Source: Trichormus sp. ATA11-4-KO1 | GTDB taxonomy: Bacteria > Cyanobacteriota > Cyanobacteriia > Cyanobacteriales > Nostocaceae | Assembly: GCA_019358915.1 (NCBI GenBank) | Contig: JAHHIM010000015.1 | Coordinates: 1-64,000 of the forward strand | DNA length: 64,000 nt | Direction of reading: 5' to 3' | Shown here: piece after piece, positions 20,026 to 40,589 of the stretch | Layout: each line of letters begins with the position of its first letter | Numbering within the stretch: the first letter of the stretch is position 1 | The notes under the pieces: generated by a model | Databases searched by the model: none | Told to the model about the DNA's origin: nothing | The model's input: only the letters and a program-made list of their open reading frames with translations | Position numbers and translations under genes: made by a program

Positions 20026-20051
20026 AAGAATTGATGACTGTGGGTTTGCTT

Positions 20052-21221
20052 TTATTCTAGAAGTTCTGCACTTTCTTCAGTTTCTTCCTCCCCTTCTAGC
20101 AACACCGTCAACGCCTCCATTTGGGCGATCGCTGTTTGCAACTTCGTCATAATAGCCGCCGCAATCACATCTGGTTCAGGTAAATCATCCCCCGACTGCA
20201 AACATTTCATCCCGCAGCCAAGTAATATCCAGGTTTTCGCCGCGTTTAGCAATATCCTCCCGCGTGAAGCAACGCCAACGCCCCAACTCCCCTTCATCTA
20301 CACGCGGACTTCCCCCATTAGCATCATCCCCGTAAACTTCTTTAAATGCCCGAAAATGCTCTCTAGTTAAAGGTGTGCGCTTGCCAAAAACAGGTATATT
20401 CGTCCGCATATCGTAAAACCACACCTGCTTGGTATTCCCCTTCTCCGTCGTTCCCCGTTGGAAAAACAGCACGTTAGTTTTGACACCTTGAGCGTAGAAA
20501 ATCCCCGTAGGCAACCGTAAAATTGTATGCAGGTTGCACTTATCCATCAAATCAGCGCGGATGCTACGCCCTTGACCATCTTCAAACAGCACATTATCAG
20601 GTAACACCACCGCCGCCCGTCCTTGGGGTAACAGTCCGCGATAGATATGCTGTAAAAAAGCTAACTGCTTGTTTGACGTAGGATAAGTAAAATCATCCCG
20701 TGTAGGCAGTCCGCCGCCCTTTTTCGTGCCAAAGGGAGGATTAGTTAAGATAACATTGGCTTTGGGTAACTGCTGTCCATCACTGGAGAGAGTATCGCCT
20801 AAGCTGACATCGCCCTCAATGCCATGTAGCAGCATATTCATTAATAACAGCCGATGGGCATCCTGTACTAATTCAATGCCGTAGAATGCTTGGTAACGCT
20901 GGAATGATTGTTCAGCTTCGCTTAAATCAAATAAATCATCAGTGTGTTTTTTAATATAGCGATCGCCGGCAATTAAAAACCCACCTGTCCCTGCTGCGGG
21001 GTCTTGTACCAGTTCTCCCGGTTGCGGTTTGATGAGTTCCACCATGCAATCAATCAAGAGACGCGGCGTAAAGTATTGCCCTGCACCAGATTTTTTCTCA
21101 CTGGCGTTTTTTCTAACAGTCCTTCGTACAAATCGCCTAAGCCTTCTGACTTGGCTGAGTACCAGTCCAGTTCATCAATGCTTTTCACCAGCTTATTGAG
21201 AATTTGCGGTTTTTTCAGGGC
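20052..21221 (-). pseudogene. hsdM: Type I restriction-modification methyltransferase HsdM, 5'-truncated with two frameshifts
   Basis: GDLYEGLLEK, DPAAGTGGFL, NPPFG, VVLPDNVLF, LRLPTGIFY and LPEPDVIA; frameshifts at the T6 run 21107-21112 and near 20205. Confidence 0.88.
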
Positions 21222-21522
21222 AGTCCCGATGAAACGAGTTTCACAGCCAAGTACGAAAGAGGGACTAGGGGTCAAAGTTTAAGATTGTTGTGATGATTGG
21301 CGTAAAAAAGGATGACAACAGATAAAGTTATTTTCTGACTTACTATAAATTAAGCAATGGCTGTTTAATTATGCTAATTGCTAAGGATATAAGTAAAAAT
21401 TCCCTTGATAATTTTATTCCAAATATTGGGAAATAAATACCATGACAATCAAAAATCATTGAATTATCCCAATGAAAATTGGGAATATTTTGATAAAGTA
21501 AAACATATATGGAGGTAAGATT

Positions 21523-22137
21523 ATGACCCAATCTTTACCAAAATTACTGACATTTGATGAATTTAGTGAATGGTATCCCAACGATGGTAAACGCTATGAA
21601 TTACATAGGGGAGTAATTGTTGAAATGCCCCCTCCATCTGGAGAACATGAAAAAGTTGTGGGATTTATAGCTCGTAAGTTAACTGTCGAGTTTGATCGCC
21701 TGAACCTTCCTTACACTATACCCAAAACCGCATTCGTCAAAACTCCTACTGCTGAATCTGCTTATTCGCCCGATGTCTTGTTATTAAATCTAGACAACCT
21801 CAGCAATGAACCACTTTTTCAAAAGCAGTCAACAGTCAGCCAAGCTGCATCTGTGCCGTTGGTGGTTGAGGTTGTATCGACTAACTGGCGAGATGATTAC
21901 TACAATAAACTTAGGGATTATGAAGAAATGGGCATTCCTGAATATTGGATTGCTGATTATGCTGCTTTGGGAGCTAGGAAATTTATTGGTAATCCCAAAC
22001 AACCGACTATTTTTGTATGTAATTTAGTTGATGGTGAATATCAAATGACTCCATTTCAAGGTGACACAGCGATTAAATCACCTACCTTCCCTCAATTAAA
22101 TTTAACCGCACAGCAGATTTTTGATGCTGCTAACTAA
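21523..22137 (+). CDS. Uma2-family endonuclease-like protein, paralog of 19408-20025
   Basis: Same motifs; GGAGG RBS upstream. Confidence 0.9.
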   Translation: MTQSLPKLLTFDEFSEWYPNDGKRYELHRGVIVEMPPPSGEHEKVVGFIARKLTVEFDRLNLPYTIPKTAFVKTPTAESAYSPDVLLLNLDNLSNEPLFQKQSTVSQAASVPLVVEVVSTNWRDDYYNKLRDYEEMGIPEYWIADYAALGARKFIGNPKQPTIFVCNLVDGEYQMTPFQGDTAIKSPTFPQLNLTAQQIFDAAN

Positions 22138-24021: not shown

Positions 24022-27000
24022 ATGCAAATCAATGCAGATACTCCTGCCATTGCAGTTATTGGTATGGGTTGTCATTATCCTGGTGCTAGTAGTTTGCCGC
24101 AACTTTGGGAAAATATTCTTGCAAGACGACGCCAGTTTCGTCAACTGCCAGATCAAAGATTGCCCATATCTGAGTATTATGACCCAGAACCAACAACACC
24201 AGATAAATCTTACGGCGATCGCGCTGCTGTCATTGATGGTTTTGAGTTTGATTGGCCTGGTAAACGTATTCCGAAATCAACTGTCGAATCAACAGATATT
24301 GTTCATTGGCTCACACTAGAAGTAGCATTAAAGGCTCTACAAGATGCTGGATACACTCGTCAAAGTGTTGCGACTGAACGCTCAGGTGTCATACTGGGAA
24401 ACACCTTGACTGGAGAACACACCCGTTCTCAAACGATGCGCTTACGCTGGCCTTATGTCCGACGAGCCTTGCGGGCTGCTGGTAAAGCTAAAGGTCTGCC
24501 ACAGCAAACGGTGGAAGAACTTGTAGAAACGATGGAAGAGTTCTACAAATCTGTATTTGCTCCAATTACCGAAGATACCTTAGCTGGTGGACTTTCTAAT
24601 ACTATTGCTGGCAGAGTTTGTAACTTTTTTAACTTTAATGGTGGTGGTTATACAGTAGACGGTGCTTGTTCTTCTTCATTGATTGCTGTTGCTACTGCTG
24701 CTACAGCCTTAGCTAACGGTGATCTCAATCTGGCCTTAGCCGGAGGCGTTGATATTAGTCTAGATACTTTTGAACTGATTGGATTTGCCAAAACAGGGGC
24801 GCTGACTGGTCAAGATATGACTGTTTATGACCGCCGTGCTAGTGGTTTTATTCCCGGAGAAGGCTGTGGCTTTGTTGTCTTGAAACGGTTGGCAGACGCT
24901 CAAGCTGATGGTGATTATATATATGCAGTCTTAAATGGTTGGGGTATATCATCTGATGGCAAAGGTGGAATTACAGCCCCTTCAAAAGTAGGACAAGCTC
25001 AAGCCTTACGCCGTGCTTATGACCGCGCAGGTTACAGCCCCCACGAACTGGACTTTATTGAAGGACATGGTACAGGCACTCCAGTAGGCGATCGCACTGA
25101 AATTGAAGGTATTGCCCTAGCCATGAGTTCTGATGGTGAATTAGCACCTCGTTCCTGTGGTGTTACTTCCTTTAAATCCCTAGTAGGACACACTAAAGCT
25201 GCCGCAGGTATTGGCGGCTTTATTAAAGCAGTCATGGCTGTCAATCAGCGAATTATCCCACCCACAGCAGGCTGTAAAGACCCCAACCCTGTATTTAATA
25301 ATTCTGCCAAGTGCCTGTATCCAATTATTCAAGGCGAAATCCGCCTAGCTTCTGATGAGCTGGTAGCTGGTGTTTCCGCAATGGGATTTGGCGGGATCAA
25401 TTCTCATGTCACCCTTTCTTCTGGTCATGCACCTGCACCTCATCTCAAACCCAGTCTTGCTGAAAGGGCGTTGTTAGTTTCTCACCAAGATACAGAAGTA
25501 TTTGTTTTGAGTGCAGAATCTGTGCAAGCACTACTGCAACGGACTCAGACAGTGATGAACCAAGCCGCAGGTATGAGCCTGGCTGAACTCGTTGATTTTG
25601 CTGCCCAACTGGGACAAGAAGCAAAATCTTCTCAATCTGTCCGGACGGCGGTAATTGCTGGTACTCCCAAAGAACTCATGGTACGTCTCCAGCAACTCGA
25701 ACAGATGCTGAATGACACTCCCCCCGCCCCAGGAGAAGTTAAAGTTACTCCTCAAAAAGACATTTGGATTGCCAACTCAGTTAAACGTCATCGTGTGGCT
25801 TTTCTATTCCCTGGTCAAGGCTCACAAAAGTTGAACATGGCTCGGACTTTAGTAGAACGTCACGCCTGGGCTAGAGAACTGCTGCAACAAGCAAATAACT
25901 GGCTGAAAGAAACGGGCTTTGAGCCAATTAGTGAGTTCATCTATCGTCCCCTAGACCGGGCTGCTAATCAAGAACAAGTCCAAGATTGGTTTAAGAAACT
26001 GACCGAAGTTGCGCCCGCAGCCATCTGTTTTGCTTCTTTACTGTGGCAGCGCTATCTAGAACGGTTGGGAATTAAGCCATCTGTCATCGGCGGTCACAGC
26101 TTGGGTGAACTCACAGCCTTTCAAGCAGTAGGAGCTTATGACGAAAAAACCCTACTGTGTTTTGCTGCTATGCGTGGAAAAGCGATGGCAGCTAAGAGCG
26201 AAAATGCTGGCACAATGGCAAGCCTAGCTTGTTCATTAGCAACTACTGAGAGCCTCTTGCAGGGAATCCCTGGCTATGTAGTCGTAGCTAATATCAATAG
26301 TCCAGTGCAGACTGTAATCTCTGGCGAGCGAGCCAGCGTAGAAGCAGTAATCAGACGTGCTACAGATCAAGATATCCAAACTCGCCTGCTGCCAGTTGCC
26401 AACGCCTTTCATTCCCAAATGGTTGCACAAGCAGCTGCATATCTGCGTGCCCATGCACCAATTCCAGAGAAACTTACCCAAACCTTATTACCTCTCTTTT
26501 CCAGTGTTAACGGCCAGCAAGTCCTGCCTGGAATCAATCTGCGGGAATACTTCGCTAACCAAATGATTTCCCAAGTAGACTTTGTTTCCTTAGTGAAAGC
26601 GATCGCTCCCCAATGCGATTTGATCATCGAGGTAGGCCCTGGAAAAGTGCTGTCTGGTTTGGTAGAAGCAACAAGCATCGCCAATAGCCCCTGGTGTTTC
26701 CCTGTAGAATCCCAAGCAGGAAGCGATCGCGACCTCAACACTTTGTTAGGTAGTTTCTTTGTTCACGGCGGCGAAGTTAACTGGACAGCACTTTACGAAA
26801 ATCGTCTGGTGCGTCCTTTTATACCAGCATCACAGCGTTTGTTCATCGACAATCCTTGCGAACGACCCTTCCCAGAGTCACTAGAACAAATAAATGCAGT
26901 TGTGCATATTTCTCATGTACCGAACAGATATATACCTAAGCAGGAATTAACACAGCAGAATGACGAAGAGTTTTTTGATACCCTATCTGCTTATTTTTCA

Positions 27001-27063
27001 CAACGAAGCTCGTTTTTAGCTGAGTTGATTCGAGCCGATATTGAAACCTTGCCACTTCTATGA
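24022..27063 (+). CDS. pksE: Enediyne-type (PksE-clade) iterative type I PKS, subunit 1: KS-AT
   Basis: PksE-diagnostic KS segment GNTLTGE..R...MRLRWPYVRR...EDTLAGGLSNTIAGR...GGGYTVDGACSSSL; EGHGTGT and GHTKAAAG; AT with FPGQGSQ, GHSLGE and AFHS; post-AT RPF......F..NPCERP. Confidence 0.9.
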   Translation: MQINADTPAIAVIGMGCHYPGASSLPQLWENILARRRQFRQLPDQRLPISEYYDPEPTTPDKSYGDRAAVIDGFEFDWPGKRIPKSTVESTDIVHWLTLEVALKALQDAGYTRQSVATERSGVILGNTLTGEHTRSQTMRLRWPYVRRALRAAGKAKGLPQQTVEELVETMEEFYKSVFAPITEDTLAGGLSNTIAGRVCNFFNFNGGGYTVDGACSSSLIAVATAATALANGDLNLALAGGVDISLDTFELIGFAKTGALTGQDMTVYDRRASGFIPGEGCGFVVLKRLADAQADGDYIYAVLNGWGISSDGKGGITAPSKVGQAQALRRAYDRAGYSPHELDFIEGHGTGTPVGDRTEIEGIALAMSSDGELAPRSCGVTSFKSLVGHTKAAAGIGGFIKAVMAVNQRIIPPTAGCKDPNPVFNNSAKCLYPIIQGEIRLASDELVAGVSAMGFGGINSHVTLSSGHAPAPHLKPSLAERALLVSHQDTEVFVLSAESVQALLQRTQTVMNQAAGMSLAELVDFAAQLGQEAKSSQSVRTAVIAGTPKELMVRLQQLEQMLNDTPPAPGEVKVTPQKDIWIANSVKRHRVAFLFPGQGSQKLNMARTLVERHAWARELLQQANNWLKETGFEPISEFIYRPLDRAANQEQVQDWFKKLTEVAPAAICFASLLWQRYLERLGIKPSVIGGHSLGELTAFQAVGAYDEKTLLCFAAMRGKAMAAKSENAGTMASLACSLATTESLLQGIPGYVVVANINSPVQTVISGERASVEAVIRRATDQDIQTRLLPVANAFHSQMVAQAAAYLRAHAPIPEKLTQTLLPLFSSVNGQQVLPGINLREYFANQMISQVDFVSLVKAIAPQCDLIIEVGPGKVLSGLVEATSIANSPWCFPVESQAGSDRDLNTLLGSFFVHGGEVNWTALYENRLVRPFIPASQRLFIDNPCERPFPESLEQINAVVHISHVPNRYIPKQELTQQNDEEFFDTLSAYFSQRSSFLAELIRADIETLPLL

Positions 27064-27244
27064 AGAAGGCTGAGTTAAAAGACCGCCCACACTTCGACAA
27101 GAGTTCGGCGAAGGCTACTTCGACAAGGCTCAGTACAAGTCACTCGAGCCGCTCAGTGACCGCAAAAGGCGGCGGGGACTTGTACCAAGTATTTTTACTT
27201 CACTCAGCACTAACTAAAGTCAACCATTAACAAGAGAACGCATA

Positions 27245-30200
27245 ATGACTAGCCAAAATTCCGCACATCAGCAAATGAACGACGAACTCACCAAACTTCT
27301 AACTAACTACTTTAGCCAACGTGGTTCATTTTTAGCTCAAATTATTCGCGCTGATTTGCAAAGCTTGCCACATTTGACAAAGCAGATTCATCAAACTCAA
27401 CAAAATGGTAATGGTCAAGCTCAACAGAATAGCAATGGTAACGCCAACCACCATTACATGGTTGAACTTCCCACTACTCAGCCTGCAAGTGTTCCCCATC
27501 AAGTTGTACAACAACCACAAGCAGCTCCCCAAGTAGTTTCTCAACCAACCATAGATGTGGAAGCAATTCTAGTAAATTTGGTGGTTAAGCAAACCGGGTT
27601 TCCGCGAGAAAGTATCACCTTGCAACTACGATTACTAGATGATTTGAATTTGGATTCCATCAAAGGTGGGGAACTGGTTGCTGGTACTGCAAAGGAATGT
27701 GGTGTAGCAGGTAAGGTCGATCCTTCTACTCTAGCCAACGCCTCTCTGCAAGAGATTGTTGAGGCTGTGCGTGAAGCTATGCCTAGTGTGAATCAGACTC
27801 AAGTTACTCCTGTAATTCCCCCACAACCAGTGGTAATTGAGCCTAAACTAGCATCCATACCCAATATGTTGCTAGAAATGGTGGTGCAACGCACAGGTTT
27901 TCCACGAGAAACCTTATCCATGAACCTGCATCTGCTAGATGATTTAAATCTAGATTCGATCAAAACGGCAGAGTTTGTGGCTGAAGCAGCTAAGCGTGTA
28001 GGAGTTGAGGGGCTGATTGATCCTTCTAACTTTGCTAATGCCACTCTGGCAGAGATTGCCACCGTCTTACAACAACTGACAGAGAAGCAAAAACCATCTG
28101 TGCAACCAAGCCCCAAAGTAGCAACAACTCTACCTGCATCAGAATCAATACCTTGGGTACGCGACTTTGTTGTTGAATACGTTCCGGAAGAAAAACCTGT
28201 GTTACCTGCCTCCAGTCAGGAAGATAATTGGGAAACAACCAACATGTTCGAGGTGGACAATTGGTCAAACGCCAACATCCTGATGATGTCTGAGGTAGAA
28301 GAAGCTGATTTTGTAGAGACATTACAGCAAGAATTTCTCAGCCAAGGTGCGAAAGTCCAAGCTGTAACTTTTGCAGAAGTAGGCGATCACTCACTCATCC
28401 ACAGCATTGATTTTACACACTTCATTGCCGTACTTCCCCGGTCACCAAAAGGTGAAATGACCCCAGAAGCTCGTCTCCAAAGAGCTATGCAGAGGGTTCG
28501 TGCTGCCGCTACACCACCCGCAGCAGCTAAAGCTCAACGCCAATACACCACAGTTGCTTATATTCAATTTGGTGGTGGCTACTTTGGCAGACTAGCGGAA
28601 GTAACCGATATCGAGCAATCCTGTAGCATGGGCTTTGCTGCTAGTCTCCACCTTGAGCGCTCTGACCTGAAAGTGCGGGTGATTGATGTTCCCATCAGTG
28701 TTACTCCCACCTCACTCACAGGACGAATCGTTGCAGAACTCTCCCGACCAGAAGCATTTGTGGCAGTTGGCTATGATACCGACCTGACTCGACTCATCCC
28801 CCGACCCCGTGTTCAAGACACAGTACTGTATCAACACCGAGATATCACCTGGTTACCCAAAGATGTATTTTTAATTACAGGTGGTGCTAAGGGGATTACG
28901 GCTGAGTGTGCCTTGGCTCTAGCTAGAACCACAGGAGTACGCACAGCTTTGGTTGGTAGTTCAGCCCATCCCCAAGTTGACCCCACAGGCAAGAGTAGCG
29001 CAGAAATCGCTAATACCCTGCAACACTTCCAAGATGAAGGATTAACCTGTCGGTATTATCAATGCAATGTTAATGATGCGATCGCAGTTGCTAGTTTGGT
29101 ACAACGCGTTGAGAAAGAACTAGGTAAGATTACAGGAGTAATTCACGGTTCTGCCCTCAACAAACCCCGTCGTGTAGAAAATGCCACTTTAGAAGAAGCG
29201 CGTACAGAAGTTGCACCCAAATTACTTGGTGCAATGAATTTAATGCAAGCCCTTGCTAATAAACCACCAAAAATGTTTGTCGGTTTCTCTTCTATCAGCG
29301 CTGTTCTGGGACTCCCTGGTAATACCTGGTATGGATTCTCTAATGAAGCTCTAGATTTGATCTTGCGTCGCTTTGGAGAAGAACATCCAGAAACCGCCAC
29401 TCTCGCCATTGCCTTTAGTGTTTGGGCAGAAGTCGGCATGGGTGCCCGCATGGGTACTGTCCGGAACCTCAACCGCATGGGAATCGAAGCTATGCCCACA
29501 GACGAAGCTGTACGTCGATTCCTACACCTCATGCAAAATGATCCTGGAGATCCCCAAGTCGTAGTTTCAGCTAGATTGGGTGGGATAGATACTTTACGCC
29601 GTGGTTTTGATACCTGGCGCACAAAACGGATGCCTCCAGCTGCGGACTTAAGATTTATCGAGCAGGTGCAGATTATGGAACCTGATGTTGAGATAGTAGC
29701 CCGCACCCACCTGAGCTTAGAGCGCGATTCCTACGTCAAAGACCATATTTACAAAGGCTCCTATCTGTTCCCCACTGTGTTTGGTTTGGAAGCGATGGCT
29801 CAAGCTGTTGCCTATGCTACAGGTCTAACTCAGCTAGATGCACTACGAATTGAAAATATCCGCTTAGAACGCCCGATTGTCGTAGACCCGGAAAATGGCA
29901 TAGATATTGAAATTCGTGCCGAAGTACTAGAACGTGAATCAGTTAATGACTTCCGCAAAGTGCGGGCAGAAATCAGAACTGAGCGGACTGGGTTTGCAAT
30001 GGCTCATTTTGCAGCTACCTTTGTCTTCGACCAGCAACATGAAGCTCCCAAAGAACAGATTCAACTTCCTAAAACACCTTTGGATATTGATCCTCAACAA
30101 GACTTGTACGGATGGTTGTTATTTCAAGGGCCCCGCTTCCAACGCATACAACAGGTTTACTCCCTCAACTCGAAGAAGTTTGTTTTTCGTACCCAAAAAG

Positions 30201-30739
30201 GTGTACCAGCAGTCACAGGTGAAGAAAAATTTGATAGAGCATCTGGGCCTTTCCTACTAGGTGACCCCTATTATCGAGATTCCTTACTCCAAGCTGTACA
30301 GCCTGTAGTTCCTCAAGACATTTGCCTACCCATCCGCATCAACAGTATTCAAGTTTATCAAACCGATAGCAATATATCTGGTTCCTGCATCGGTGTGGTT
30401 AACCTGCATGGTCGCCAAGGTCGGCAATATAACAGCACAGTCTTTGCTGTGGATGAAGCAGGACGCATCATTGAAAAGCTAGATGGTTATCACCTACAGA
30501 TTCTAGAACATCGTGAAAATCATCCGACTGCTGAAGATTTGGCTGATCCTACTCAGCGTGATGAGCAACTTCTGCGCCGTGAACTTAACAATCGAGCTAA
30601 AGCTTTGCAGATGACCGTACCAGAAGCTTCACTCGCGCAACTTCCCGGTTTACATGCTTTATCTGCCGCAGAACGTCACCAACGGGAAATACCAGTGTTT
30701 TCCAAAACTGTGGATAAGCTGTTAAGCACTCTCGAATAA
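27245..30739 (+). CDS. Enediyne-type PKS subunit 2: ACP-ACP-KR-DH
   Basis: Two LLDDLNLDSIK ACPs; PWVRDF; KR LITGGAKGITAECALALA and YGFSNE; DH DHIYKGSYLFPTVFGLEAMAQA, LFQGPRFQR and GDPYYRD. Confidence 0.9.
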   Translation: MTSQNSAHQQMNDELTKLLTNYFSQRGSFLAQIIRADLQSLPHLTKQIHQTQQNGNGQAQQNSNGNANHHYMVELPTTQPASVPHQVVQQPQAAPQVVSQPTIDVEAILVNLVVKQTGFPRESITLQLRLLDDLNLDSIKGGELVAGTAKECGVAGKVDPSTLANASLQEIVEAVREAMPSVNQTQVTPVIPPQPVVIEPKLASIPNMLLEMVVQRTGFPRETLSMNLHLLDDLNLDSIKTAEFVAEAAKRVGVEGLIDPSNFANATLAEIATVLQQLTEKQKPSVQPSPKVATTLPASESIPWVRDFVVEYVPEEKPVLPASSQEDNWETTNMFEVDNWSNANILMMSEVEEADFVETLQQEFLSQGAKVQAVTFAEVGDHSLIHSIDFTHFIAVLPRSPKGEMTPEARLQRAMQRVRAAATPPAAAKAQRQYTTVAYIQFGGGYFGRLAEVTDIEQSCSMGFAASLHLERSDLKVRVIDVPISVTPTSLTGRIVAELSRPEAFVAVGYDTDLTRLIPRPRVQDTVLYQHRDITWLPKDVFLITGGAKGITAECALALARTTGVRTALVGSSAHPQVDPTGKSSAEIANTLQHFQDEGLTCRYYQCNVNDAIAVASLVQRVEKELGKITGVIHGSALNKPRRVENATLEEARTEVAPKLLGAMNLMQALANKPPKMFVGFSSISAVLGLPGNTWYGFSNEALDLILRRFGEEHPETATLAIAFSVWAEVGMGARMGTVRNLNRMGIEAMPTDEAVRRFLHLMQNDPGDPQVVVSARLGGIDTLRRGFDTWRTKRMPPAADLRFIEQVQIMEPDVEIVARTHLSLERDSYVKDHIYKGSYLFPTVFGLEAMAQAVAYATGLTQLDALRIENIRLERPIVVDPENGIDIEIRAEVLERESVNDFRKVRAEIRTERTGFAMAHFAATFVFDQQHEAPKEQIQLPKTPLDIDPQQDLYGWLLFQGPRFQRIQQVYSLNSKKFVFRTQKGVPAVTGEEKFDRASGPFLLGDPYYRDSLLQAVQPVVPQDICLPIRINSIQVYQTDSNISGSCIGVVNLHGRQGRQYNSTVFAVDEAGRIIEKLDGYHLQILEHRENHPTAEDLADPTQRDEQLLRRELNNRAKALQMTVPEASLAQLPGLHALSAAERHQREIPVFSKTVDKLLSTLE

Positions 30740-30793
30740 TGTTGACAAGTCCCTGATTTCAAAAATTTAACAGTAAGGATTAAATATTAAGTC

Positions 30794-32401
30794 ATGAATA
30801 AGTCTTCATCAACTGCTGTCAAAACCAAAGCTAGACCAAAAAGCAGTTCCCGTCCAATCAGTAAATTTGGCCCAACACCTCTACAGGGTTCAGGTTTGCT
30901 GCAAAATGTTCAAATAAATTGGCTTGATTCTGGAAAGCCTGTACTTGAGGGACTAGAAAAGGAATTAGTAGATGTGTCCCTTTCTCATGACGATCGCGTT
31001 TGTCTGTGTGTCGCTGGTATTGGCCCCCAAGGTTGTGACATTGCTCCTGTAACCCATCGCTTACGAGAAGATTGGACTGCTTTACTCAGTAACTCTCGCG
31101 AGCCTGTAATGCAACAGCTACTAGAAAATAGCTCCGATTCAGTAGACCTTGCTGGTACACGGATTTGGGCAGCAATTGAAGCTGTACGTAAAGCTACGAA
31201 TGCTCAGAAAATCGACTTAGAAATTGACCGTTATGAAGGAGATAGTATTCTATTCCGGGGAATTACTGCTGAGAATCAAGTATATATCTTGACTTTTCCT
31301 CTGGCACTTACGCGGGGCCCAGAAAGAGTTGTTGCTGTTGTTGTCTCCAATCCTCAAGCTACTGCTAGCGATCGCACTCCCAAAACAGTCCGGACTACGC
31401 CAGTTGAAGATATTTACCGCATCAGTAATTCTCACGAAAACGAGAAAGTATTTGTTGTGCGATCGCCTGTCTCGTACAAAGAGACTGCTAACCTCAGCCA
31501 AAGTGTCTATTTTTCGCACTTTTTTAACTGGATGGGTAAGATTCGCGATTTAGCTATTTGGTCTATTCGTGAACCCCTAGGACAGCATTTAGCTACTGGT
31601 GAGTGGGGAATGGTCACTAATCATGCTCAAACCCGAATTCTTGGTGAAGCGGGACTAAACGATGTCATCGAAGGACGTTACTGGGTAGCTAATGTATCTG
31701 GCCCTGCTAATTCAACTGTTGATTTTCGCTACGATTGGCTCAAAGTTTTACCTGATGGTAGTTTTGAGCGGATTGCTCAAAGTCAGTTGTGTATGACTTG
31801 GGTAAATCTAGCCAAACAAGGGCCCGCCGAACTGAAACCCTTACCAGATTACTTAGAAAAGTTCATCAACCAATTATCTGACCCGTCCTATACTCCCCAG
31901 CCACTCCCAGAATCTTTTGCGGATATTCACTTAGGAAAAAAGTTATATCAAGCACTACCAGGTATTAACTCTGGTCGATTACTACGAGAACAGATTTTTG
32001 AAACATCTCTAGAAGATACAGACGCGATCGGCAATATTAACTTTGCTAACTACTACGTTTGGCAAGGACGCATCCGGGATAGTTTCTTCTACAAACTCAT
32101 CCCAGACTCTTACCGCAGAACAGCAAGTCAAGGTGAATTTCGGTGTCTGCACAGTCGGGTAGAAAACTTACGCGAAGCGCTACCCTTCGATCAAATCCAG
32201 GTGAATATGTCACTACGGGCAGTATACGAAAACAGTGTCAGTTTGGCTTTTGCATATTTTCGCCTCACACCAGATGGTAAGAAACAAAAGCTAGCCGTTG
32301 GTGAGCATGAAGCTGCGTGGTTTAGCCGTAGCCAGGATGGGAAATTCGTACCAGCGCCATTACCAGAAGTTGTGCGCTTGGCTTTATGTGAACAGTCTTG
32401 A
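30794..32401 (+). CDS. PKS subunit 3: PksE-type phosphopantetheinyl transferase fused to two hotdog thioesterase domains (PksE10/CalE7-like)
   Basis: GKP, SLSH, GCDIA and W..IEAVRKA PPTase motifs; KETANLSQSVYFSHFFNWMGKIRD and EDTDAIGNINFANYYVWQGRIRD thioesterase motifs. Confidence 0.8.
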   Translation: MNKSSSTAVKTKARPKSSSRPISKFGPTPLQGSGLLQNVQINWLDSGKPVLEGLEKELVDVSLSHDDRVCLCVAGIGPQGCDIAPVTHRLREDWTALLSNSREPVMQQLLENSSDSVDLAGTRIWAAIEAVRKATNAQKIDLEIDRYEGDSILFRGITAENQVYILTFPLALTRGPERVVAVVVSNPQATASDRTPKTVRTTPVEDIYRISNSHENEKVFVVRSPVSYKETANLSQSVYFSHFFNWMGKIRDLAIWSIREPLGQHLATGEWGMVTNHAQTRILGEAGLNDVIEGRYWVANVSGPANSTVDFRYDWLKVLPDGSFERIAQSQLCMTWVNLAKQGPAELKPLPDYLEKFINQLSDPSYTPQPLPESFADIHLGKKLYQALPGINSGRLLREQIFETSLEDTDAIGNINFANYYVWQGRIRDSFFYKLIPDSYRRTASQGEFRCLHSRVENLREALPFDQIQVNMSLRAVYENSVSLAFAYFRLTPDGKKQKLAVGEHEAAWFSRSQDGKFVPAPLPEVVRLALCEQS

Positions 32402-32831: not shown

Positions 32832-34613
32832 ATGTACACTACTCAGTCTCAAGAATATGATGTCGTAATTATGGGAGCAGGATTTGCGGGCGTTTGTCAA
32901 GCAAGGCATCTCATGCTCAACATTCCCAATATCAAAGTTGCGCTCATTGATCCTCGCCCTGAAGAACGCACCGATAAAGATATGAAAATCGGTGAGTCGA
33001 TGATCGAAGGCGCTGCTCTCTTTGTCTGCAAGGAGTTGGGGCTTTACGAATACATGATCGAAAACCACACACCCAAGAATGGATTAAATTTTCACTGGCC
33101 TAAAGATCCTGCTCAAACCTCTAATTTGGATGACTACTATCATCTGTGGGTAAATCGGCAAACCGACATTGGTTCCTTTCATATGAACCGAGCCAAGTTT
33201 GAGCGGGATGTGCTGAAGATGAATCAGGAGATGGGTGCGGTTTTCTATAATGGTCGTGTACTAGATGTAGACCTGACTCCAGGTGATGCAATTAAAACGG
33301 TTAAGGTTAAGGTTCATGGTGAAGATATAGAACTGAAAGCCAAGCACGTAATTGATGCAGCAGGTCGTAAGTTTATGATTGGGCGTAAGAAAGACAATAT
33401 CATCTTCCATCAACCGGATGGTGGAGAAGGAGCAGATAACCTTTACGGTCTCAATAACGGCTCAGCATGGGTGCGAGTGAGAAATATAGACCGTAAACTC
33501 TTCCACGATGGCTATGACCCCACCGGAGCTGCTACCAGTCACTACTATGCCACCAATCACTGGTTTGGTCACGGTCACTGGTTGTGGATGATTCCCACAG
33601 ACAAAGACCCGTTAGAATTATCCATTGGTGTGATTCACCATCATGAGGTAATTCCAGCTAACAGTATTAATAGCTTAGATAAGTTTTCAGCTTTTCTCAA
33701 AGAAAATCACAAACTGCTTTATCAGTTAATTAATAGCGGCGAATTGGTTGATTTTCACTATTTACCTAGGTTAGGTCATAACAGTAAAACTCTATATTCT
33801 CAGGATAACTGGTATGTGCTGGGAGATGCGGCTTGTATTTTTGATGCATTTTATTCTTTCGGCACAACGATGATTGCCTTTGCTACTGAAAGCATCACCG
33901 AAATTATTCGCGCCAAACTAGCAAAAGAAGCTGATGCCGAAATAAAGCGGGAAGCTTACAATCGGTTCAATCTTCGCTATGTCCAAGATGTCAATCGTCT
34001 GTACCGCTACCATGCCAAGCAACTAGGTAACGCCAGCATTATGAGCTGGAGAATATCCTTTGAATATAGTTGGTGGTTTGGTTTGCATGTACCCCTTTAT
34101 CTTGGTAAATGGCATTTACATTTGCGCTACGTCAATACATACTTGCAACACACCAAACGAGTGGGCAATTTTATTAATCATGTCCACGACCAACTAAGTT
34201 TGCTCGTTGAACAAGGCAAAAATATTGGCTTCCTCGATCCTTATCGTGCTGATCAACTGTTCAATCATCACAGTCCTGTGAGCCATGCTGATACTTATTT
34301 GGAAAATGCCAGGTATGAACCCAGACGATGCAACATTTTTAGAAATAGTCGTCAGACTTGTTTAAACGTTGCTGTTTGGTATGCAATGTTTCTGTGGAAA
34401 GGTTTTGGAATTGCCGGATTTTTATCTCCTCGCTCTCTGCAATATCTATTCCTGTTAATTGGATTGGTAGGTTATGGAGCTTTTTATGAGATATTCTATC
34501 TCTACCAAACCAGGAAGCTTCCTGCCAACAGTCAAGTGGCTCAAAGAAATCAAGAAGTTAAAGACTATCAATACAAAGCTGAATTACAGCCTTGGATAGC
34601 TGAAGCCCAATGA
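32832..34613 (+). CDS. Flavin-dependent halogenase 1 (tryptophan-halogenase superfamily)
   Basis: GAGFAG FAD motif, KIGES, catalytic-Lys-like TPKNGLNFHW, WLWMIP (WxWxIP), GDAA..FDAFYS.G. Confidence 0.82.
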   Translation: MYTTQSQEYDVVIMGAGFAGVCQARHLMLNIPNIKVALIDPRPEERTDKDMKIGESMIEGAALFVCKELGLYEYMIENHTPKNGLNFHWPKDPAQTSNLDDYYHLWVNRQTDIGSFHMNRAKFERDVLKMNQEMGAVFYNGRVLDVDLTPGDAIKTVKVKVHGEDIELKAKHVIDAAGRKFMIGRKKDNIIFHQPDGGEGADNLYGLNNGSAWVRVRNIDRKLFHDGYDPTGAATSHYYATNHWFGHGHWLWMIPTDKDPLELSIGVIHHHEVIPANSINSLDKFSAFLKENHKLLYQLINSGELVDFHYLPRLGHNSKTLYSQDNWYVLGDAACIFDAFYSFGTTMIAFATESITEIIRAKLAKEADAEIKREAYNRFNLRYVQDVNRLYRYHAKQLGNASIMSWRISFEYSWWFGLHVPLYLGKWHLHLRYVNTYLQHTKRVGNFINHVHDQLSLLVEQGKNIGFLDPYRADQLFNHHSPVSHADTYLENARYEPRRCNIFRNSRQTCLNVAVWYAMFLWKGFGIAGFLSPRSLQYLFLLIGLVGYGAFYEIFYLYQTRKLPANSQVAQRNQEVKDYQYKAELQPWIAEAQ

Positions 34614-34750: not shown

Positions 34751-36604
34751 ATGTATACTAGCCAGTCTCATGAATATGACGTTGTGATTATGGGTGCAGG
34801 GTTTGCTGGTCTATGTCAAGCAAGGCATCTGATGCTCAACATCCCCAATATCAAAGTTGCCCTCATCGACCCTCGACCGGAAGAACGGACTGATAAAGAC
34901 TTGAAAGTTGGTGAATCTTTGGTGGAAGTCTCTTCGCTTTTTGTGACTAAAGAGTTGGGTCTTTATGAGTACATGATTGAAAATCATACACCAAAGTTTG
35001 GTTTGAATTTTCATTGGCCGAAAGACCCTGCTCGTACCGAAACAATTGATGATTACTTGAGTATTTGGGATAATCGGCAACCATCGATTACTACTTTTCA
35101 TATGAACCGCTCTAAGTTTGAGCGAGATGTGTTGCAAATGAATCAGGAGATGGGTGCTGTTTTCTATAATGGTCGCGTCTTAGATGTTGATCTGACACCA
35201 GGTGATGCAATTAAAACGGTTAAGAGTAAGGTTAACGGTGAAGTTATAGAACTGAAAGCCAAGCACGTAATTGACGCCGCAGGTCGCAGGTTCATTATTG
35301 GCAATAAGACCAATAATTTGGTTTTTAATCAAGCTGGTGGCGGTGAAGGGTCTGATAATCTCTACGGTGTTAATAATGGCTCAGCATGGCTACGTGTGAG
35401 AAATATGGATCGATCGCTGTTCCATGATGGTTATGATCCCACAAGTGCGACTGCTAGTCACTGGTATGCAACCAATCACTGGTTTGGTCATGGACATTGG
35501 TTATGGATGATTCCTACCAGTACAGATCCTTTAGAACTGTCGATTGGGGTTATTCATCATCATGAGGTCATTCATAGTGAACAGATTAATACTCGCGATA
35601 AATTCCTTGCTTTCTTGAAAGCAAATCATACCCATCTCTATAAACTGATCACTAGTGGTGAACAAGTTGATTTCCATTACTTGCCGAGAGTAGCGCATAG
35701 CAGCAAAATGGTATTTTCTCCCGATAACTGGTATGTGCTGGGTGATGCAGCCTATATTTTCGATGCTTTTTATTCCTATGGTGCAACAATGATTTCTTTT
35801 GCTGCGGAAAGCATCACCGAAATCATTCGCGCCAAGTTGGCAGGGGAAGCCAATGCGGAACAGAAACGCTTGGCTTTTAACGAGTTTAATCTGACAATGG
35901 CACGTAGTGCTAATGGCGTCATGCGCTATCATGCCAAGCAATTAGGCAATGCTAGTGTGATGAGTTGGCGGATTTACTTTGAGTATATGTGGTGGTTTGG
36001 GATTATTTTGCCTTTGTTTATCGGTAAACGACACCTGGATATTAACTTTGTCCCTCAATTCACCAAAGCTTTTAGTGCCAATATTGATGGAGTTTTAGCT
36101 GATGTACATCAACAGTTTAATCAACTTGTAGATCAAGGCACTAATTTAGGTATTTTAGATTGTTACAGAGCAGATCAATTAGTTGGAGAATACTACACAT
36201 CTAAACGCTTTGATGACTACCTGGAAAACGCTAAGTATGAACCAGGACGAACCAATATCTTTGCTAGTATCAAATCTGCTTACTACTACGTAGCAATTTG
36301 GTACACCATGTTTCAGTGGAAAGGCTTTGGTTTAGCAGGTTTGCTAGCACCGCGATCGCTTTACAATATCTTCCGTTTACTGGCTTTGTCGAGCTATACT
36401 GCCATCGGCGAATTAATCTACCGCTTCCAGACCCGAAATTTGCCTGCTAACAGTCAAGTGGAAAAGATGCGTCAAGAATTCAAAAACTACCAATACCAAG
36501 CTCAGTTACAGCCTTGGACTCCAGAAATAGACTCGCCATGCATGGAGCAGCAATCAAGTGAGCAAGCAGTACCAAGGCTGCCAGAGTTATCTGTACTGTC
36601 CTAG
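34751..36604 (+). CDS. Flavin-dependent halogenase 2, tandem paralog
   Basis: Same motifs: GAGFAG, KVGES, TPKFGLNFHW, WLWMIP. Confidence 0.82.
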   Translation: MYTSQSHEYDVVIMGAGFAGLCQARHLMLNIPNIKVALIDPRPEERTDKDLKVGESLVEVSSLFVTKELGLYEYMIENHTPKFGLNFHWPKDPARTETIDDYLSIWDNRQPSITTFHMNRSKFERDVLQMNQEMGAVFYNGRVLDVDLTPGDAIKTVKSKVNGEVIELKAKHVIDAAGRRFIIGNKTNNLVFNQAGGGEGSDNLYGVNNGSAWLRVRNMDRSLFHDGYDPTSATASHWYATNHWFGHGHWLWMIPTSTDPLELSIGVIHHHEVIHSEQINTRDKFLAFLKANHTHLYKLITSGEQVDFHYLPRVAHSSKMVFSPDNWYVLGDAAYIFDAFYSYGATMISFAAESITEIIRAKLAGEANAEQKRLAFNEFNLTMARSANGVMRYHAKQLGNASVMSWRIYFEYMWWFGIILPLFIGKRHLDINFVPQFTKAFSANIDGVLADVHQQFNQLVDQGTNLGILDCYRADQLVGEYYTSKRFDDYLENAKYEPGRTNIFASIKSAYYYVAIWYTMFQWKGFGLAGLLAPRSLYNIFRLLALSSYTAIGELIYRFQTRNLPANSQVEKMRQEFKNYQYQAQLQPWTPEIDSPCMEQQSSEQAVPRLPELSVLS

Positions 36605-36857: not shown

Positions 36858-37214
36858 ATGTCTGAGTTAACATCGACCCCAAGCACTAATGAAATTCATA
36901 AGGGACTCCATCTCTTGGGATTAAGTCTTTCTGAACTGGAACTCAATGACCTGAAGATAGGGCAAACTATTTCACTCGAAACCAGAAGTTTAGGTGAAAT
37001 CGGTTCAATGTTTATCTTAGCAGCAGCACTTTCAGCCGTGAATTTAGGTAAAACTAAGAAAACTGTGACCTTTGGAGATTTACCACAAGTAGTGAATGAA
37101 TCGGCAAATTCCCCAGGAATTCCCATATATTGCTGGATTTCTGATACTCTGAATAAAAAATGTCTTTACCTAACTTTAGTTGATGGCAAACCTGCACTGT
37201 GCATTACCACGTAG
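36858..37214 (+). CDS. Hypothetical 118-aa protein inside PKS cluster
   Basis: ATG with upstream GAGGA, co-oriented between halogenase 2 and devB; no recognised motif. Confidence 0.6.
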   Translation: MSELTSTPSTNEIHKGLHLLGLSLSELELNDLKIGQTISLETRSLGEIGSMFILAAALSAVNLGKTKKTVTFGDLPQVVNESANSPGIPIYCWISDTLNKKCLYLTLVDGKPALCITT

Positions 37215-37383: not shown

Positions 37384-38703
37384 ATGAAATCACCACTATC
37401 TTTTAAATCTACAAGCTTGGTAACAACTATTCTCTTAGTTACAGGCGCTTTAATTACAGGTGCTGTGACTACTTATTCTGTATTACGTTTCCAGTCAGCA
37501 AATTCCAGTCCGCCACCAACTACCCTAGCTACTGCGAATATTGATATTGGTGCTGTTGCTGCTACGGGGGTTTTGGAACCTAAAGACGAAGTAATTGCCA
37601 TATCTGCACCAGCTTTCCAGGAAGGAGCAAGAGTGAAGCAACTGCTAGTGAAACGGGGAGATAAAGTTGAATCTGGTCAAGTCATCGCTATTCTAGACAG
37701 CCGCGATCGCTTGGAAGCATCTCTGCAACAGGCGCAAACACAAATTAGAGTTGCCCAAGCTCGTCTACTGCAAGTCAAAGCTGGTGCGAAAAGAGGTGAC
37801 ATCATAGCTCAAGATGCTAGGTTTCAAGGTACAAAGGCTGAATTAGAAGGGCAAATCGCCACCCAAAGGGCAGCCATTGCTAGCTTACAGGCTAAGTTGC
37901 AAGGGGAAAAGAGTGCCCAAGAAGCGACGATTGGGCGCATCAAAGCTGAGTTACGAAATTCCCAAACTGATTGTGAGCGCTATGAGAATTTATATAAAGA
38001 TGGGGCGGTAGCAGCTCAACAACGTGATAGTTTTTGCCTGCAACGGGACACCAATCAAGAACGGCTCAAGGAAGCCCAAGCAAATCTCAGCCGCATTGTC
38101 AATTCTTATCAAGAAGATATTCAAGAAGCAAAAGCAAACCTGAATCGCACAGTAGCCACAAATCAAAAGCAGATTAAAGAAGCGCAAGCCACCCTAGACT
38201 CAGTTGCAGAAGTTCGTCCTGTCGATGTACAAATCGCCCAAATGGAATTTGCAGCTGCACAAGCAGCAGCTCAACGGGCTAGGGCAGATTTAGATTTAGC
38301 TTATGTGCGATCGCCTAGAGATGGTCAAGTTCTAAAAGTTCATACCTGGCCAGGTGAACTAATTGGCAATGAGGGAATTGTTGACTTAGGAAACACTGAC
38401 CAAATGTATGTAACGGCAGAAGTTTATGAAACCGATATTACTAGAGTCAGTATAGGTCAAACAGCCACAATTAGGGGTGATAGAGTAATAGGCGATTTAC
38501 AAGGAACAGTAGATGAAATTGGTTTACAAATTGGCAAAAAAGATGCACTAGGGACTGACCCCGTTGCTGATGCAGATGCCAGAGTAGTGGAAGTAAAAAT
38601 TAAGCTCGATCAAGAAGCTAGTCAGCGAGTTGCAGGCTTAACTAATTTACAAGTCAAAGTGGTGATTAATACATCAGAAACTACACAAAGCATGAGCAAT
38701 TAA
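37384..38703 (+). CDS. devB: DevB-family ABC exporter membrane fusion protein
   Basis: AVAATGVLEP, LLVKRGDKV, long coiled coil, AEVYETDI, DARVVEVKI. Confidence 0.9.
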   Translation: MKSPLSFKSTSLVTTILLVTGALITGAVTTYSVLRFQSANSSPPPTTLATANIDIGAVAATGVLEPKDEVIAISAPAFQEGARVKQLLVKRGDKVESGQVIAILDSRDRLEASLQQAQTQIRVAQARLLQVKAGAKRGDIIAQDARFQGTKAELEGQIATQRAAIASLQAKLQGEKSAQEATIGRIKAELRNSQTDCERYENLYKDGAVAAQQRDSFCLQRDTNQERLKEAQANLSRIVNSYQEDIQEAKANLNRTVATNQKQIKEAQATLDSVAEVRPVDVQIAQMEFAAAQAAAQRARADLDLAYVRSPRDGQVLKVHTWPGELIGNEGIVDLGNTDQMYVTAEVYETDITRVSIGQTATIRGDRVIGDLQGTVDEIGLQIGKKDALGTDPVADADARVVEVKIKLDQEASQRVAGLTNLQVKVVINTSETTQSMSN

Positions 38704-38712
38704 CCAAAAATT

Positions 38713-39888
38713 ATGTTTAGTAAATTACCTACAGCTTGGTTACAACTTAGCCATCAAAGAACTCGATTAATTGTTGCACTTTCCGGAGTTATCTTTGCAG
38801 TTGTGATTGTTTTTATGCAGCTTGGCATTCGTGATGCTTTGTTTGATAGTGCGGTTCGTCTCCATGAAGGTTTACAAGGTGATTGTTTTTTAATTAGTCC
38901 GCGTTCTACATCCTTAATTGCGATGGAGAGCTTTCCAGAAAGACGCTTAACGCAAGCTTTGGCGTTTGAGGAAGTGGATTTTGTGAATCCTATTTATTTG
39001 GGATTTGGTCAGTGGAAAAACCCCGAAACTAGAGATTATTGGCGCAATATTTTTGTGATTGGTTTTGAATTTCGAGATAGAGAGCCAATATTTAATTTTC
39101 CAGGAGTTGAAGAGAATTTAAATTTTCTGAAATTACCGGATATGGTTTTATTTGACCGTAGTTCTCGCTCTGAATTTGGTCCTATTGTGGCAGACTTTGA
39201 AAAACAGCGCAACGTAACAGCAGAAATTAGCGATCGCGGTATAAATCGCAAAGTTCAAGTAGCGGGATTATTTGAACTGGGAACTTCGTTTGGATCTGAT
39301 GGTAATTTACTTACTAGCCATCTTAACTTCCTGAGAATTTTTAGTGGTCGGCAGCAAGGCTTAATTAATATTGGCTTGATTAAATTAAAACCTGGAAATG
39401 ATGCTGATGCTTTTGTCACGAAACTGAAAGACTACTTACCCAAAGATGTGAAAGTTCTCTCAAAATCCGAATTAATTGCTTTTGAAAAAAATTATTGGCA
39501 AAGTAGTACAGCAATTGGCTTTATTTTTAACTTAGGAGTAGCTCTAGGAATTATTGTCGGTGTTGTGGTTGTTTATCAAATTCTTTATAGCAATGTTTCG
39601 GAACATTTAGCAGAATATGCCACTCTCAAAGCAATGGGATATCGTCATAATTATCTGTTGTCTATGGTGCTGCAACAAGCCTTGTTTATTGCCATTTTAG
39701 GTTATATACCAGGTTTGCTCATTTCTGTAATTCAATATGAATTTGCTAAACAAGCTACCTTACTACCAATTGTGATGAATTTCCCCAGAGCAACATTTGT
39801 CCTAGCATCAACTATCATTATGTGTTTTATTTCTGGTGCTACTGCGGTGGGTAAACTAAAATCCGCAGATCCGGCTGATATTTTTTAA
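38713..39888 (+). CDS. devC: DevC-family ABC exporter permease
   Basis: AWLQL..R..VALSGV.FA..FMQLG, HLAEYATLKAMGY, C-terminal ADPADIF. Confidence 0.92.
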   Translation: MFSKLPTAWLQLSHQRTRLIVALSGVIFAVVIVFMQLGIRDALFDSAVRLHEGLQGDCFLISPRSTSLIAMESFPERRLTQALAFEEVDFVNPIYLGFGQWKNPETRDYWRNIFVIGFEFRDREPIFNFPGVEENLNFLKLPDMVLFDRSSRSEFGPIVADFEKQRNVTAEISDRGINRKVQVAGLFELGTSFGSDGNLLTSHLNFLRIFSGRQQGLINIGLIKLKPGNDADAFVTKLKDYLPKDVKVLSKSELIAFEKNYWQSSTAIGFIFNLGVALGIIVGVVVVYQILYSNVSEHLAEYATLKAMGYRHNYLLSMVLQQALFIAILGYIPGLLISVIQYEFAKQATLLPIVMNFPRATFVLASTIIMCFISGATAVGKLKSADPADIF

Positions 39889-39902
39889 GGACTATATATA
39901 TT

Positions 39903-40589
39903 ATGCAACCTGTAATAGCTATTAGTAATCTCAACCATTATTATGGCAATAGTTCTTTAAAAAAACAGGTCTTATTTGATATTAACCTGGAAATATATCC
40001 GGGAGAAATTGTCATTATGACTGGCCCTTCCGGCTCTGGAAAAACTACTTTATTATCATTAATTGGGGCTTTGCGTTCTGTCCAAGAGGGAAGTATTAAA
40101 ATTTTAGGCGAAGAAATGCATGGCGCAAATGAAGAAAAAATGGTGCAAACTCGTCGCCACATCGGTTATATTTTCCAAGCTCATAATTTATTACCATTTA
40201 TGAGTGCTAGACAAAATGTCCAAATGTCAATTGAGCTGCATGAAGATATTAGCAGTCACGAAGCACGCACCAAATCGGAAGCAATGCTTCAGGAAGTGGG
40301 ATTGGGGGAGCGAGTTGACTACTATCCTGACAGCCTTTCAGGAGGACAAAAACAACGTGTAGCGATCGCTCGTGCTTTAGTGAGTCACCCTAAACTAGTT
40401 TTAGCAGATGAGCCAACTGCGGCATTAGATAAAAAGACAGGTCGAGATGTTGTAGATTTGATGCAGCGTCTAGCAAAAGAACAAGGATGCACTATCATGT
40501 TGGTAACTCACGACAATCGGATTTTAGATATTGCCGATCGCATTATTAATATGGAAGATGGTCAACTTTCACTGATGACAGTTACTTAA
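39903..40589 (+). CDS. devA: DevA-family ABC exporter ATP-binding subunit
   Basis: GPSGSGKTT, IFQAHNL, LSGGQKQRVAIARAL, LADEPTAALD. Confidence 0.93.
   Translation: MQPVIAISNLNHYYGNSSLKKQVLFDINLEIYPGEIVIMTGPSGSGKTTLLSLIGALRSVQEGSIKILGEEMHGANEEKMVQTRRHIGYIFQAHNLLPFMSARQNVQMSIELHEDISSHEARTKSEAMLQEVGLGERVDYYPDSLSGGQKQRVAIARALVSHPKLVLADEPTAALDKKTGRDVVDLMQRLAKEQGCTIMLVTHDNRILDIADRIINMEDGQLSLMTVT

Follow-up and report, generated by a model that had tools for sequence, protein, structure and literature searches.

When an iterative polyketide synthase (PKS) is encoded in pieces, what holds its condensing half, ketosynthase (KS) and acyltransferase (AT), to its carrier and modifying half, acyl carrier protein (ACP), ketoreductase (KR), and dehydratase (DH)? 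This question is raised by a gene cluster of the cyanobacterium Trichormus sp. ATA11-4-KO1, located within positions 1 to 64,000 of contig JAHHIM010000015.1 (here called the window, a stretch of 64,000 nucleotides). The PKS genes of this cluster represent a PksE-like iterative PKS cut as KS-AT / ACP-ACP-KR-DH / phosphopantetheinyl transferase (PPTase)-thioesterase (TE). The PKSE domain order KS-AT-ACP-KR-DH is present, spread over two genes, and the same motif ends subunit 1 (C copy) and begins subunit 2 (N copy). We propose that the two copies probably descend from an ancestral self-pairing helix that was duplicated when the gene split, and that they were tuned to dock with each other, C to N.

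The facing ends of subunits 1 and 2 carry one motif

The termini of both subunits read as reported in the initial annotation: the 21-residue cores are identical at 15 positions (26992-27054 against 27308-27370), the synonymous codon pairs listed there are found in the sequence, and a Q/N/P-rich linker lies ahead of ACP1. The ungapped match extends further, to 20 of 36 residues (Q978-L1013 against Q9-L44), and its local score of 100 compares with 46.1 ± 5.8 (highest, 82) in 300 shuffles of subunit 2. At the DNA level the cores agree at 45 of 63 nucleotides, with 15, 19, and 11 of 21 identical at codon positions 1, 2, and 3, respectively, the third position being the lowest. A motif profile, trained on relatives and on the window's own two copies, recovered both copies from the 52,694 stop-to-stop frames of the genome (E values of 3.5e-16 and 6.1e-14), and no other frame scored better than an E value of 0.2. 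Chance similarity was ruled out by the shuffles and by this genome-wide search.

The 181-nt spacer between the two genes arose recently, when dispersed repeats inserted into the former tail of subunit 1. The stop of subunit 1 once overlapped the subunit 2 start, as it does in the close relatives L112 and L113 (spacing of −1), both of which are free of the insertion. Since close relatives without the repeats have both copies, the repeats did not cause the motif duplication, and target-site duplication was rejected as its source. Different repeats are inserted at the same site in locus L111.

Copy number follows gene architecture

The region downstream of the AT matched 53 of 389 genomes sampled from the family, 28 of 401 from the order, and 16 of 401 from the phylum, these samples overlapping. 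The searches retained partial matches without the motif, so that motif-less split forms could have surfaced. From the genome collection, 80 of 117 loci were kept. After identical rows were merged and 7 loci with a too-short KS-AT were dropped, 114 KS-AT cores were available, including 6 protein-only rows whose copy states were assigned by eye.

Copy number followed architecture. One copy in a fused gene was found in 49 of the 114 cores, and a split gene with a copy on each end in 33; fused genes without a detected copy numbered 21 (6 of them canonical PksE), and 7 were fused with two tandem copies. Of the remaining 4, contig ends cut 2, and the other 2 looked split with a single copy; these proved to reflect an N gap in one case and, in the other, a homopolymer slip of one base when compared with a fused sister. 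Among the 7 loci dropped for a short KS-AT, the split ones likewise carry both copies. The initial annotation had anticipated one copy in fused homologs and two in split ones; this holds for the 49 and the 33, including both ends of every split homolog among the latter, and fails for the 21 fused genes with none and the 7 fused genes with two. The C copy lies 0 to 15 residues ahead of the stop in 33/33 split loci. Assembly artefact and read-through were excluded as explanations for the split by the presence of true stops and by spacings of −20 to +791 nt across these loci.

Protein searches gave a similar picture. With a query containing the motif, 40 of 41 near-length matches end in it, the exception being a fragment of a fused gene. 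With a motif-free query, the top 120 of 343 matches include 76 ACP-first proteins. Of these, 72 begin with the motif (3 of the 72 look like fused-gene fragments), and in 70 of the 72 the start of the N copy falls at residue 15 or earlier; the four without it are two partial sequences, a protein that begins directly with the ACP, and a protein whose N end is unrelated. When a profile was searched against 1.84 billion representatives, 60 matches came back, 43 in the context of this PKS, 9 short fragments, and 8 repeat-rich chance matches. Judged from these sequence matches, the motif is specific to this PksE-like PKS family at the sensitivity of that search. A Pfam search with 63 motif members found no common family (4 scattered chance families were returned). 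No RNA run was listed as holding the sequence, and contigs of four sequencing runs added nothing independent on the motif, the best-matching run possibly being the source itself.

Both copies are conserved and have diverged in opposite directions

Across the 33 split loci, the ratio of nonsynonymous to synonymous differences (pN/pS) was 0.28 in the C core and 0.33 in the N core, with pS saturated near 0.7; the flanks gave 0.96 and 0.88, values computed without gaps that serve as a rough background only. Ratios near 0.3 bear out the suggestion, made initially from codon differences within the window, that both copies are under purifying selection at the protein level. Identity between C and N copies was 0.59 within a locus and 0.58 between loci, compared with 0.69 for both C-C and N-N pairs. 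Gene conversion between the copies was rejected on the equality of the first two values; as both also fall below the C-C and N-N values, the copies are old and separately conserved rather than homogenized. Duplication across a breakpoint is, as a matter of general knowledge, a common route by which genes split, and one copy could on that ground be a functionless leftover of such an event. This is scarcely credible here and largely refuted, given a pN/pS near 0.3 in both copies at saturated pS and retention of the N copy in 72 of the 76 ACP-first proteins mentioned above.

In a 31-column model, Tyr12, Arg16, Phe19, Ile24, Ala26, and Asp27 are near-invariant in C copies (n = 35), N copies (n = 34), and single copies (n = 50). 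Plotted on a helical wheel, the motif is amphipathic, with a hydrophobic face of about 200 degrees that has Arg16 and Asp27 at its center and is flanked by a stripe formed by positions 15, 22, and 29. Two or three acids occupy the stripe in 32 of 35 C copies and none in 31 of 34 N copies, whereas single copies have one in 44 of 50. In 34/34 loci the C copy is more acidic than the N copy on this stripe, and the difference is retained in all five re-fused tandem loci that were scored. In the window, Glu1001 and Glu1008 of the C copy stand against Gln32 and Gln39 of the N copy.

These observations bear directly on the homotypic pair put forward in the initial annotation. The copies are indeed homologous; their opposite divergence on the stripe in every locus argues that they are not strictly homotypic and points to preferred C-to-N pairing. 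Interchangeable copies, any mixture of which would form the same bundle and in which the charge difference has no role, would account for the shared invariant core, and the three-copy loci described below suggest a bundle that accepts several partners. We consider this quite improbable, since opposite derived changes have been kept in 34/34 loci at saturated synonymous divergence, and in the five re-fused loci as well.

A second possibility is that each copy dimerizes only its own subunit (C with C and N with N) and is kept twice because both halves need it, the halves themselves meeting only through ACP contacts. A self-pairing surface kept from the ancestor would agree with the invariant core, which all three kinds of copy (single, C, and N) have in common, and re-fused genes mostly keep both copies. 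However, the two or three stripe acids of 32 of 35 C copies would face each other in an antiparallel self-pair, a burden lighter in the single copy with its one acid; KS domains are described as dimerizing unaided in the available text of PMC9491710; and a small ACP-only subunit retains the motif. We regard dimerization of each subunit alone as unlikely.

Going by the residue pattern, an antiparallel register centered near position 22 would pair Arg16 with Asp27, Gly17 with Ala26, and Phe19 with Ile24. A crude charge-pair count over seven antiparallel registers favored the Arg16-Asp27 register; the comparison of hetero- with homo-pairing in that count is close to arithmetic and was not used as evidence.

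The two-copy forms share one clade in the KS-AT tree

When the KS-AT tree is rooted on canonical PksE, a single clade takes in every two-copy form (support of 100, Shimodaira-Hasegawa [SH]-like, with 114 rows; 99, SH approximate likelihood ratio test, with 57 rows). Outside it lie fused genes with one copy or none detected, which occur in many cyanobacteria as well as in Nitrospirota, Desulfobacterota, Planctomycetota, and Myxococcota. The origin of the pair by duplication, as first suggested, agrees with the presence of a single helix in fused non-cyanobacterial homologs. Fused genes are also nested within the clade, those with two copies in two places among split ones. Trees forcing the fused two-copy genes into a single clade (approximately unbiased test, p-AU = 1e-40) or making the split genes alone a clade (p-AU = 1e-89) were rejected. 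One duplication with fission, followed by several re-fusions, is the simplest reading; many separate fissions after a tandem duplication would be a less economical alternative. A fused gene of Microcystis aeruginosa LEGE 91341 (L164), nested among split genes, has neither copy. Two long-branched one-copy Thermoflavimicrobium genes also lie inside the clade and can be removed from it without loss of likelihood (p-AU = 0.55). In these Bacillota loci (L185 and L186) the PKS is fused and has three ACPs and one copy; its position near the cyanobacterial two-copy clade raises the possibility of transfer, the placement being unsure.

The window itself is a mosaic. Subunit 1 and the first 100 residues of subunit 2 are 77 to 100% identical to those of L112 and L113, and the remainder of subunit 2 is 26 to 68% identical. 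The fall in identity lies just before ACP1 (window 27377-27550), and the ACP-KR-DH-TE half therefore derives from another clade. Both copies traveled with KS-AT while the downstream half was exchanged, which linkage alone could explain.

Structural models and the alternative of domain-surface docking

AlphaFold2 modeled each copy as one continuous 28-residue helix, with predicted local distance difference test (pLDDT) values of about 70 in a tandem model and 39 to 49 in a model of subunit 1. The latter, built from 39 rows, has a poor KS and a low-confidence linker separating the helix from the AT. A fold of the natural tandem L126 (4-row alignment) gave two helices at a predicted template modeling score of 0.37, too low to place their packing. 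A complex prediction with two C and two N copies (A2, A3) scored 0.23 against a mark of 0.32; its controls were not folded and the job was unlike the calibration, so it is no evidence either way. Foldseek found no match for the low-confidence L126 model, and a C-copy profile searched against the PDB returned just 4 chance matches (E values of 0.09 to 0.66) and no solved docking domain. The ESM Atlas yielded unnamed short clusters only, at a recognition below the useful level, and whole-enzyme structures of PksE-like iterative PKSs were not found in our PDB search.

These models bear on a third alternative, docking on domain surfaces in the manner of DHD or COM, in which the C copy would bind KR or DH in trans and the N copy would bind KS-AT with no pairing of helices. 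The accessible portion of PMC9113145 describes terminal segments that bind domain surfaces at KS/DH and E/C junctions, the wide hydrophobic face of the motif would suit packing on a domain, and the subunit 1 model leaves the location of the helix unsettled. Yet two different targets should let buried residues drift, whereas the six near-invariant positions are the same in both copies, and the C copy of the window is paired with a KR-DH region from another clade. Binding of this kind is, in our estimation, also unlikely.

Natural variants and other cut points

In L044, L150, and L155, a gene for a pyridoxal phosphate (PLP) enzyme (Aminotran_1_2) is inserted after the ACP, and the KR-DH subunit thus freed starts with a third copy. 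The PLP enzyme gene lies between ACP and KR at L150:9178-10551 and, in a further locus, at L116:9415-10851. We take the enzyme to resemble release enzymes of the 8-amino-7-oxononanoate synthase type. Where the ACP subunit and the PLP enzyme face each other, their ends resemble short helical docking segments of the ordinary kind. The KS frame is broken about 700 nt into the gene in L142, L044, L150, and L155; the three inspected have a poly-G run, differing in length, at the break, which makes them candidates for phase variation or decay.

Cut points elsewhere also occur: L125 is cut between KS and AT and has one copy, and L139 is a many-piece cluster in which both copies are still present. The split between subunits 2 and 3 also occurs in 7 of 45 one-copy fused loci, and it never carries the motif; in many relatives subunit 3 is fused to subunit 2. 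At the subunit 2/3 split, the halves of a folded domain can probably find each other, whereas the cut between AT and ACP falls in a flexible linker and would leave no other link.

A proposed route to a docking pair

With the architecture, the copy-number rule, the single KS-AT clade, purifying selection, and the opposite divergence as its foundation, the favored reading runs as follows. In the fused PksE-like ancestor, comparison places a single predicted amphipathic helix of roughly 28 residues between AT and ACP. In the PKS dimer, this helix would probably have formed an antiparallel pair with the same helix of the other chain, such that the invariant Arg and Asp met their opposite numbers. 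In one cyanobacterial lineage, the helix appears to have been duplicated and the gene cut between the copies, in either order. The cut removes the sole covalent link of KS-AT to ACP-KR-DH, and the two copies would then clasp the halves and hold the ACPs within reach of KS and AT. After the split, the C copy became acidic on one flank of the helix and the N copy lost its acid there, changes that would disfavor C-with-C and favor C-with-N pairing. The resulting pair, made from one duplicated oligomerization helix, would be homologous in origin and heterotypic in preference. Physical association of the copies is suggested here by sequence alone.

A broader form of this proposal, which we hold to be about as likely true as false, is that the motif is a portable docking element: a helix complementary to itself, which after duplication reassembles an iterative PKS that has been cut, becomes a charge-tuned C/N pair, is recopied when a third subunit is recruited, permits exchange of ACP-KR-DH-TE between clusters, and is dropped on re-fusion.

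Several observations weigh against these proposals. Re-fused genes mostly retain both copies (7/8), which an unneeded tether would not require. The two-copy state seemingly arose once, so that the 33 loci cannot be counted as independent events, and the charge asymmetry reflects a single change that was kept rather than repeated changes. The KR-DH tree separates the split forms into three groups rather than one clade, and the mosaic window indicates a history mixed by recombination. The 21 fused homologs without a detectable copy, including the 6 canonical PksE, mean that the helix is not required for PKS function as such. The motif is absent from 18/18 KR-first proteins among the best 120 of 343 matches, from the KR piece of L116 despite a similar insertion, and from the second split (window 30739-30794, inside the PPTase-like region), which is present in 12 of 32 scorable split loci. 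All three-copy loci have a broken KS frame, with a poly-G run in those inspected, and may be inactive or phase variable. Finally, the helix is of low confidence in the subunit 1 model, and sequence data cannot separate copy-copy pairing from binding to a domain surface.

Relation to known docking systems

In the available text of two reviews, class 1, class 2, trans-AT four-helix, DHD, and COM docking types are described as complementary pairs (PMC9113145, PMC12284057), five types of docking domain being distinguished in the latter (PMC12284057). Among the types described there, none is a pair of paralogous copies or sits at the AT/ACP junction of an iterative PKS. The nearest likeness is to the trans-AT four-helix-bundle ("double-helix pair") domains of VirA/VirFG and MlnD/MlnE, which according to the portion consulted are helical C- and N-terminal segments of about 25 residues at intramodule junctions, with a hydrophobic core and charge-based specificity (PMC9113145). 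Those domains are helix-turn-helix pairs in modular trans-AT hosts, whereas our low-confidence models show one continuous helix per side. Here, in addition, the AT is fused to the KS, the enzyme is an iterative cis-AT PKS cut between AT and ACP, and both sides are paralogs of one ancestral internal helix, in all of which it differs from the trans-AT type.

Class 1 and class 2 cis-AT domains (DEBS2/3 and CurG/H) have terminal helices, a dimeric context, and electrostatic specificity, as the motif probably does; as described in the same partial source, they join an ACP to the KS of the next module in one direction, and their C and N parts are of different make-up (PMC9113145). The junction studied here is AT/ACP, inside one iterative module. 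The LINKS element of trans-AT KS linker domains is, as the motif may be, a self-pairing helical PKS element with sequence-tuned specificity, but, in the text available, it is part of a folded linker domain and joins equal modules sideways, with no rejoining of a split module (PMC9491710). From its sequence pattern, the motif would work like a docking domain while differing from the named classes in junction and host. Our literature search, of partial coverage and excluding supplements, found no paper on the motif or the split, which does not establish absence from print. The cluster type is already known; the helix pair is real, conserved, family specific, and apparently undescribed.

In their available parts, the reviews catalogue finished pairs and leave open how docking domains first come about as megasynthase genes are split (PMC9113145, PMC12284057). 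If the proposal is true, the family contains every state of the series (a single copy, a split pair, three copies, re-fusion with both, and re-fusion with none) and shows the birth of a docking domain from a homo-oligomerization helix; if the clasp, the most likely role, is true, this is a new route by which megasynthases gain a docking part. Because ancestral, derived, and reverted states are all sampled in genomes, the move from self- to hetero-pairing could be addressed with short peptides. The pair would also show a place where PksE-like iterative PKSs are cut and tethered in nature, and it offers PKS engineering a candidate docking part that differs from the known types.

The gene cluster

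The features of the cluster are listed in Table 1. The region shared by subunits 2 and 3 is presumably PPTase-like, a label taken from PksE architecture and from a weak ACPS match in one relative. Database labels of relatives read "enediyne polyketide synthase," and the window PKS resembles the enediyne PKSs (PksE: CalE8, SgcE, and DynE8) in domain order, KS-AT-ACP-KR-DH, and in its ACP region, which among the solved ACPs matched is closest to that of CalE8 (2l9f). It differs in its three genes, tandem ACPs, and fused thioesterases; canonical PksE relatives lack the motif and are placed far off, as an outgroup. We take DUF1702 and UnbV_ASPIC as stand-ins for enediyne cassette genes. DUF1702 was not found in the window genome (G000, 99.89% complete), nor was UnbV_ASPIC in a search without a positive control. 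In three control genomes (G095, G047, and G594), DUF1702 lies no more than about 10 kb from the canonical PKS; as it was not found here, we did not file the cluster as an enediyne cassette. Such a cassette comprises E3/E4/E5/E/E10 in the available text of PMC5181780. Enediyne-like KSs are known outside actinobacteria from the accessible parts of PMC10308959 and PMC4247773, and a PksE-like PKS with three halogenases and an unknown product is described for Microcystis PCC 7806, again in the text available, a likeness to the halogenase-like neighbors seen here (PMC2442094).

Table 1. Features of the PKS cluster in the window
Feature	Coordinates	Strand	Remarks
PKS subunit 1 (KS-AT, 1013 aa)	24022..27063	+	KS Cys216, His349, His390 and AT Ser693 motifs intact
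Variable linker, AT region to terminal helix, about residues 930-979	26809..26958	+	Low-confidence model segment 930-980; unconserved in alignments
C copy of helix, N980-P1011, acidic type	26959..27054	+	Core 26992-27054
Dispersed repeats inserted in spacer	27064..27218	.	Strand unassigned; 19-mer 27118-27136, 33 genome matches
Relic of former subunit 1 tail	27219..27247	+	DNA alignment with L111-L113; its stop overlaps subunit 2 ATG
PKS subunit 2, 1164 aa: helix, linker, ACP, ACP, KR, DH, first part of PPTase-like region	27245..30739	+	
N copy of helix, M11-P42, neutral to basic type	27275..27370	+	Core 27308-27370
Q/N/P-rich linker, N copy to ACP1	27377..27544	+	Recombination boundary between linker and ACP1 (identity profile)
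PKS subunit 3, 535 aa: second part of PPTase-like region and hot-dog thioesterase domains	30794..32401	+	
Flavin-dependent halogenase-like protein 1	32832..34613	+	Weak Trp_halogenase and CmlS matches, below NCBIfam cutoff
Flavin-dependent halogenase-like protein 2	34751..36604	+	
118-aa protein, no Pfam/NCBIfam match	36858..37214	+	Recurs beside halogenase-like genes in several related clusters
DevB, DevC, DevA-type ABC exporter	37384..40589	+	TIGR02971, TIGR01185, TIGR02982 above cutoff

Elsewhere in the motif family, two DUF1702 genes lie a few kilobases downstream of a fused one-copy PKS (G366:C87:177597-179408), a possible link to enediyne-cassette chemistry. Upstream of the cluster in the window (19408-22137), two Uma2-type genes flank a truncated-looking gene that, from its motifs, we take to encode a DNA methyltransferase.

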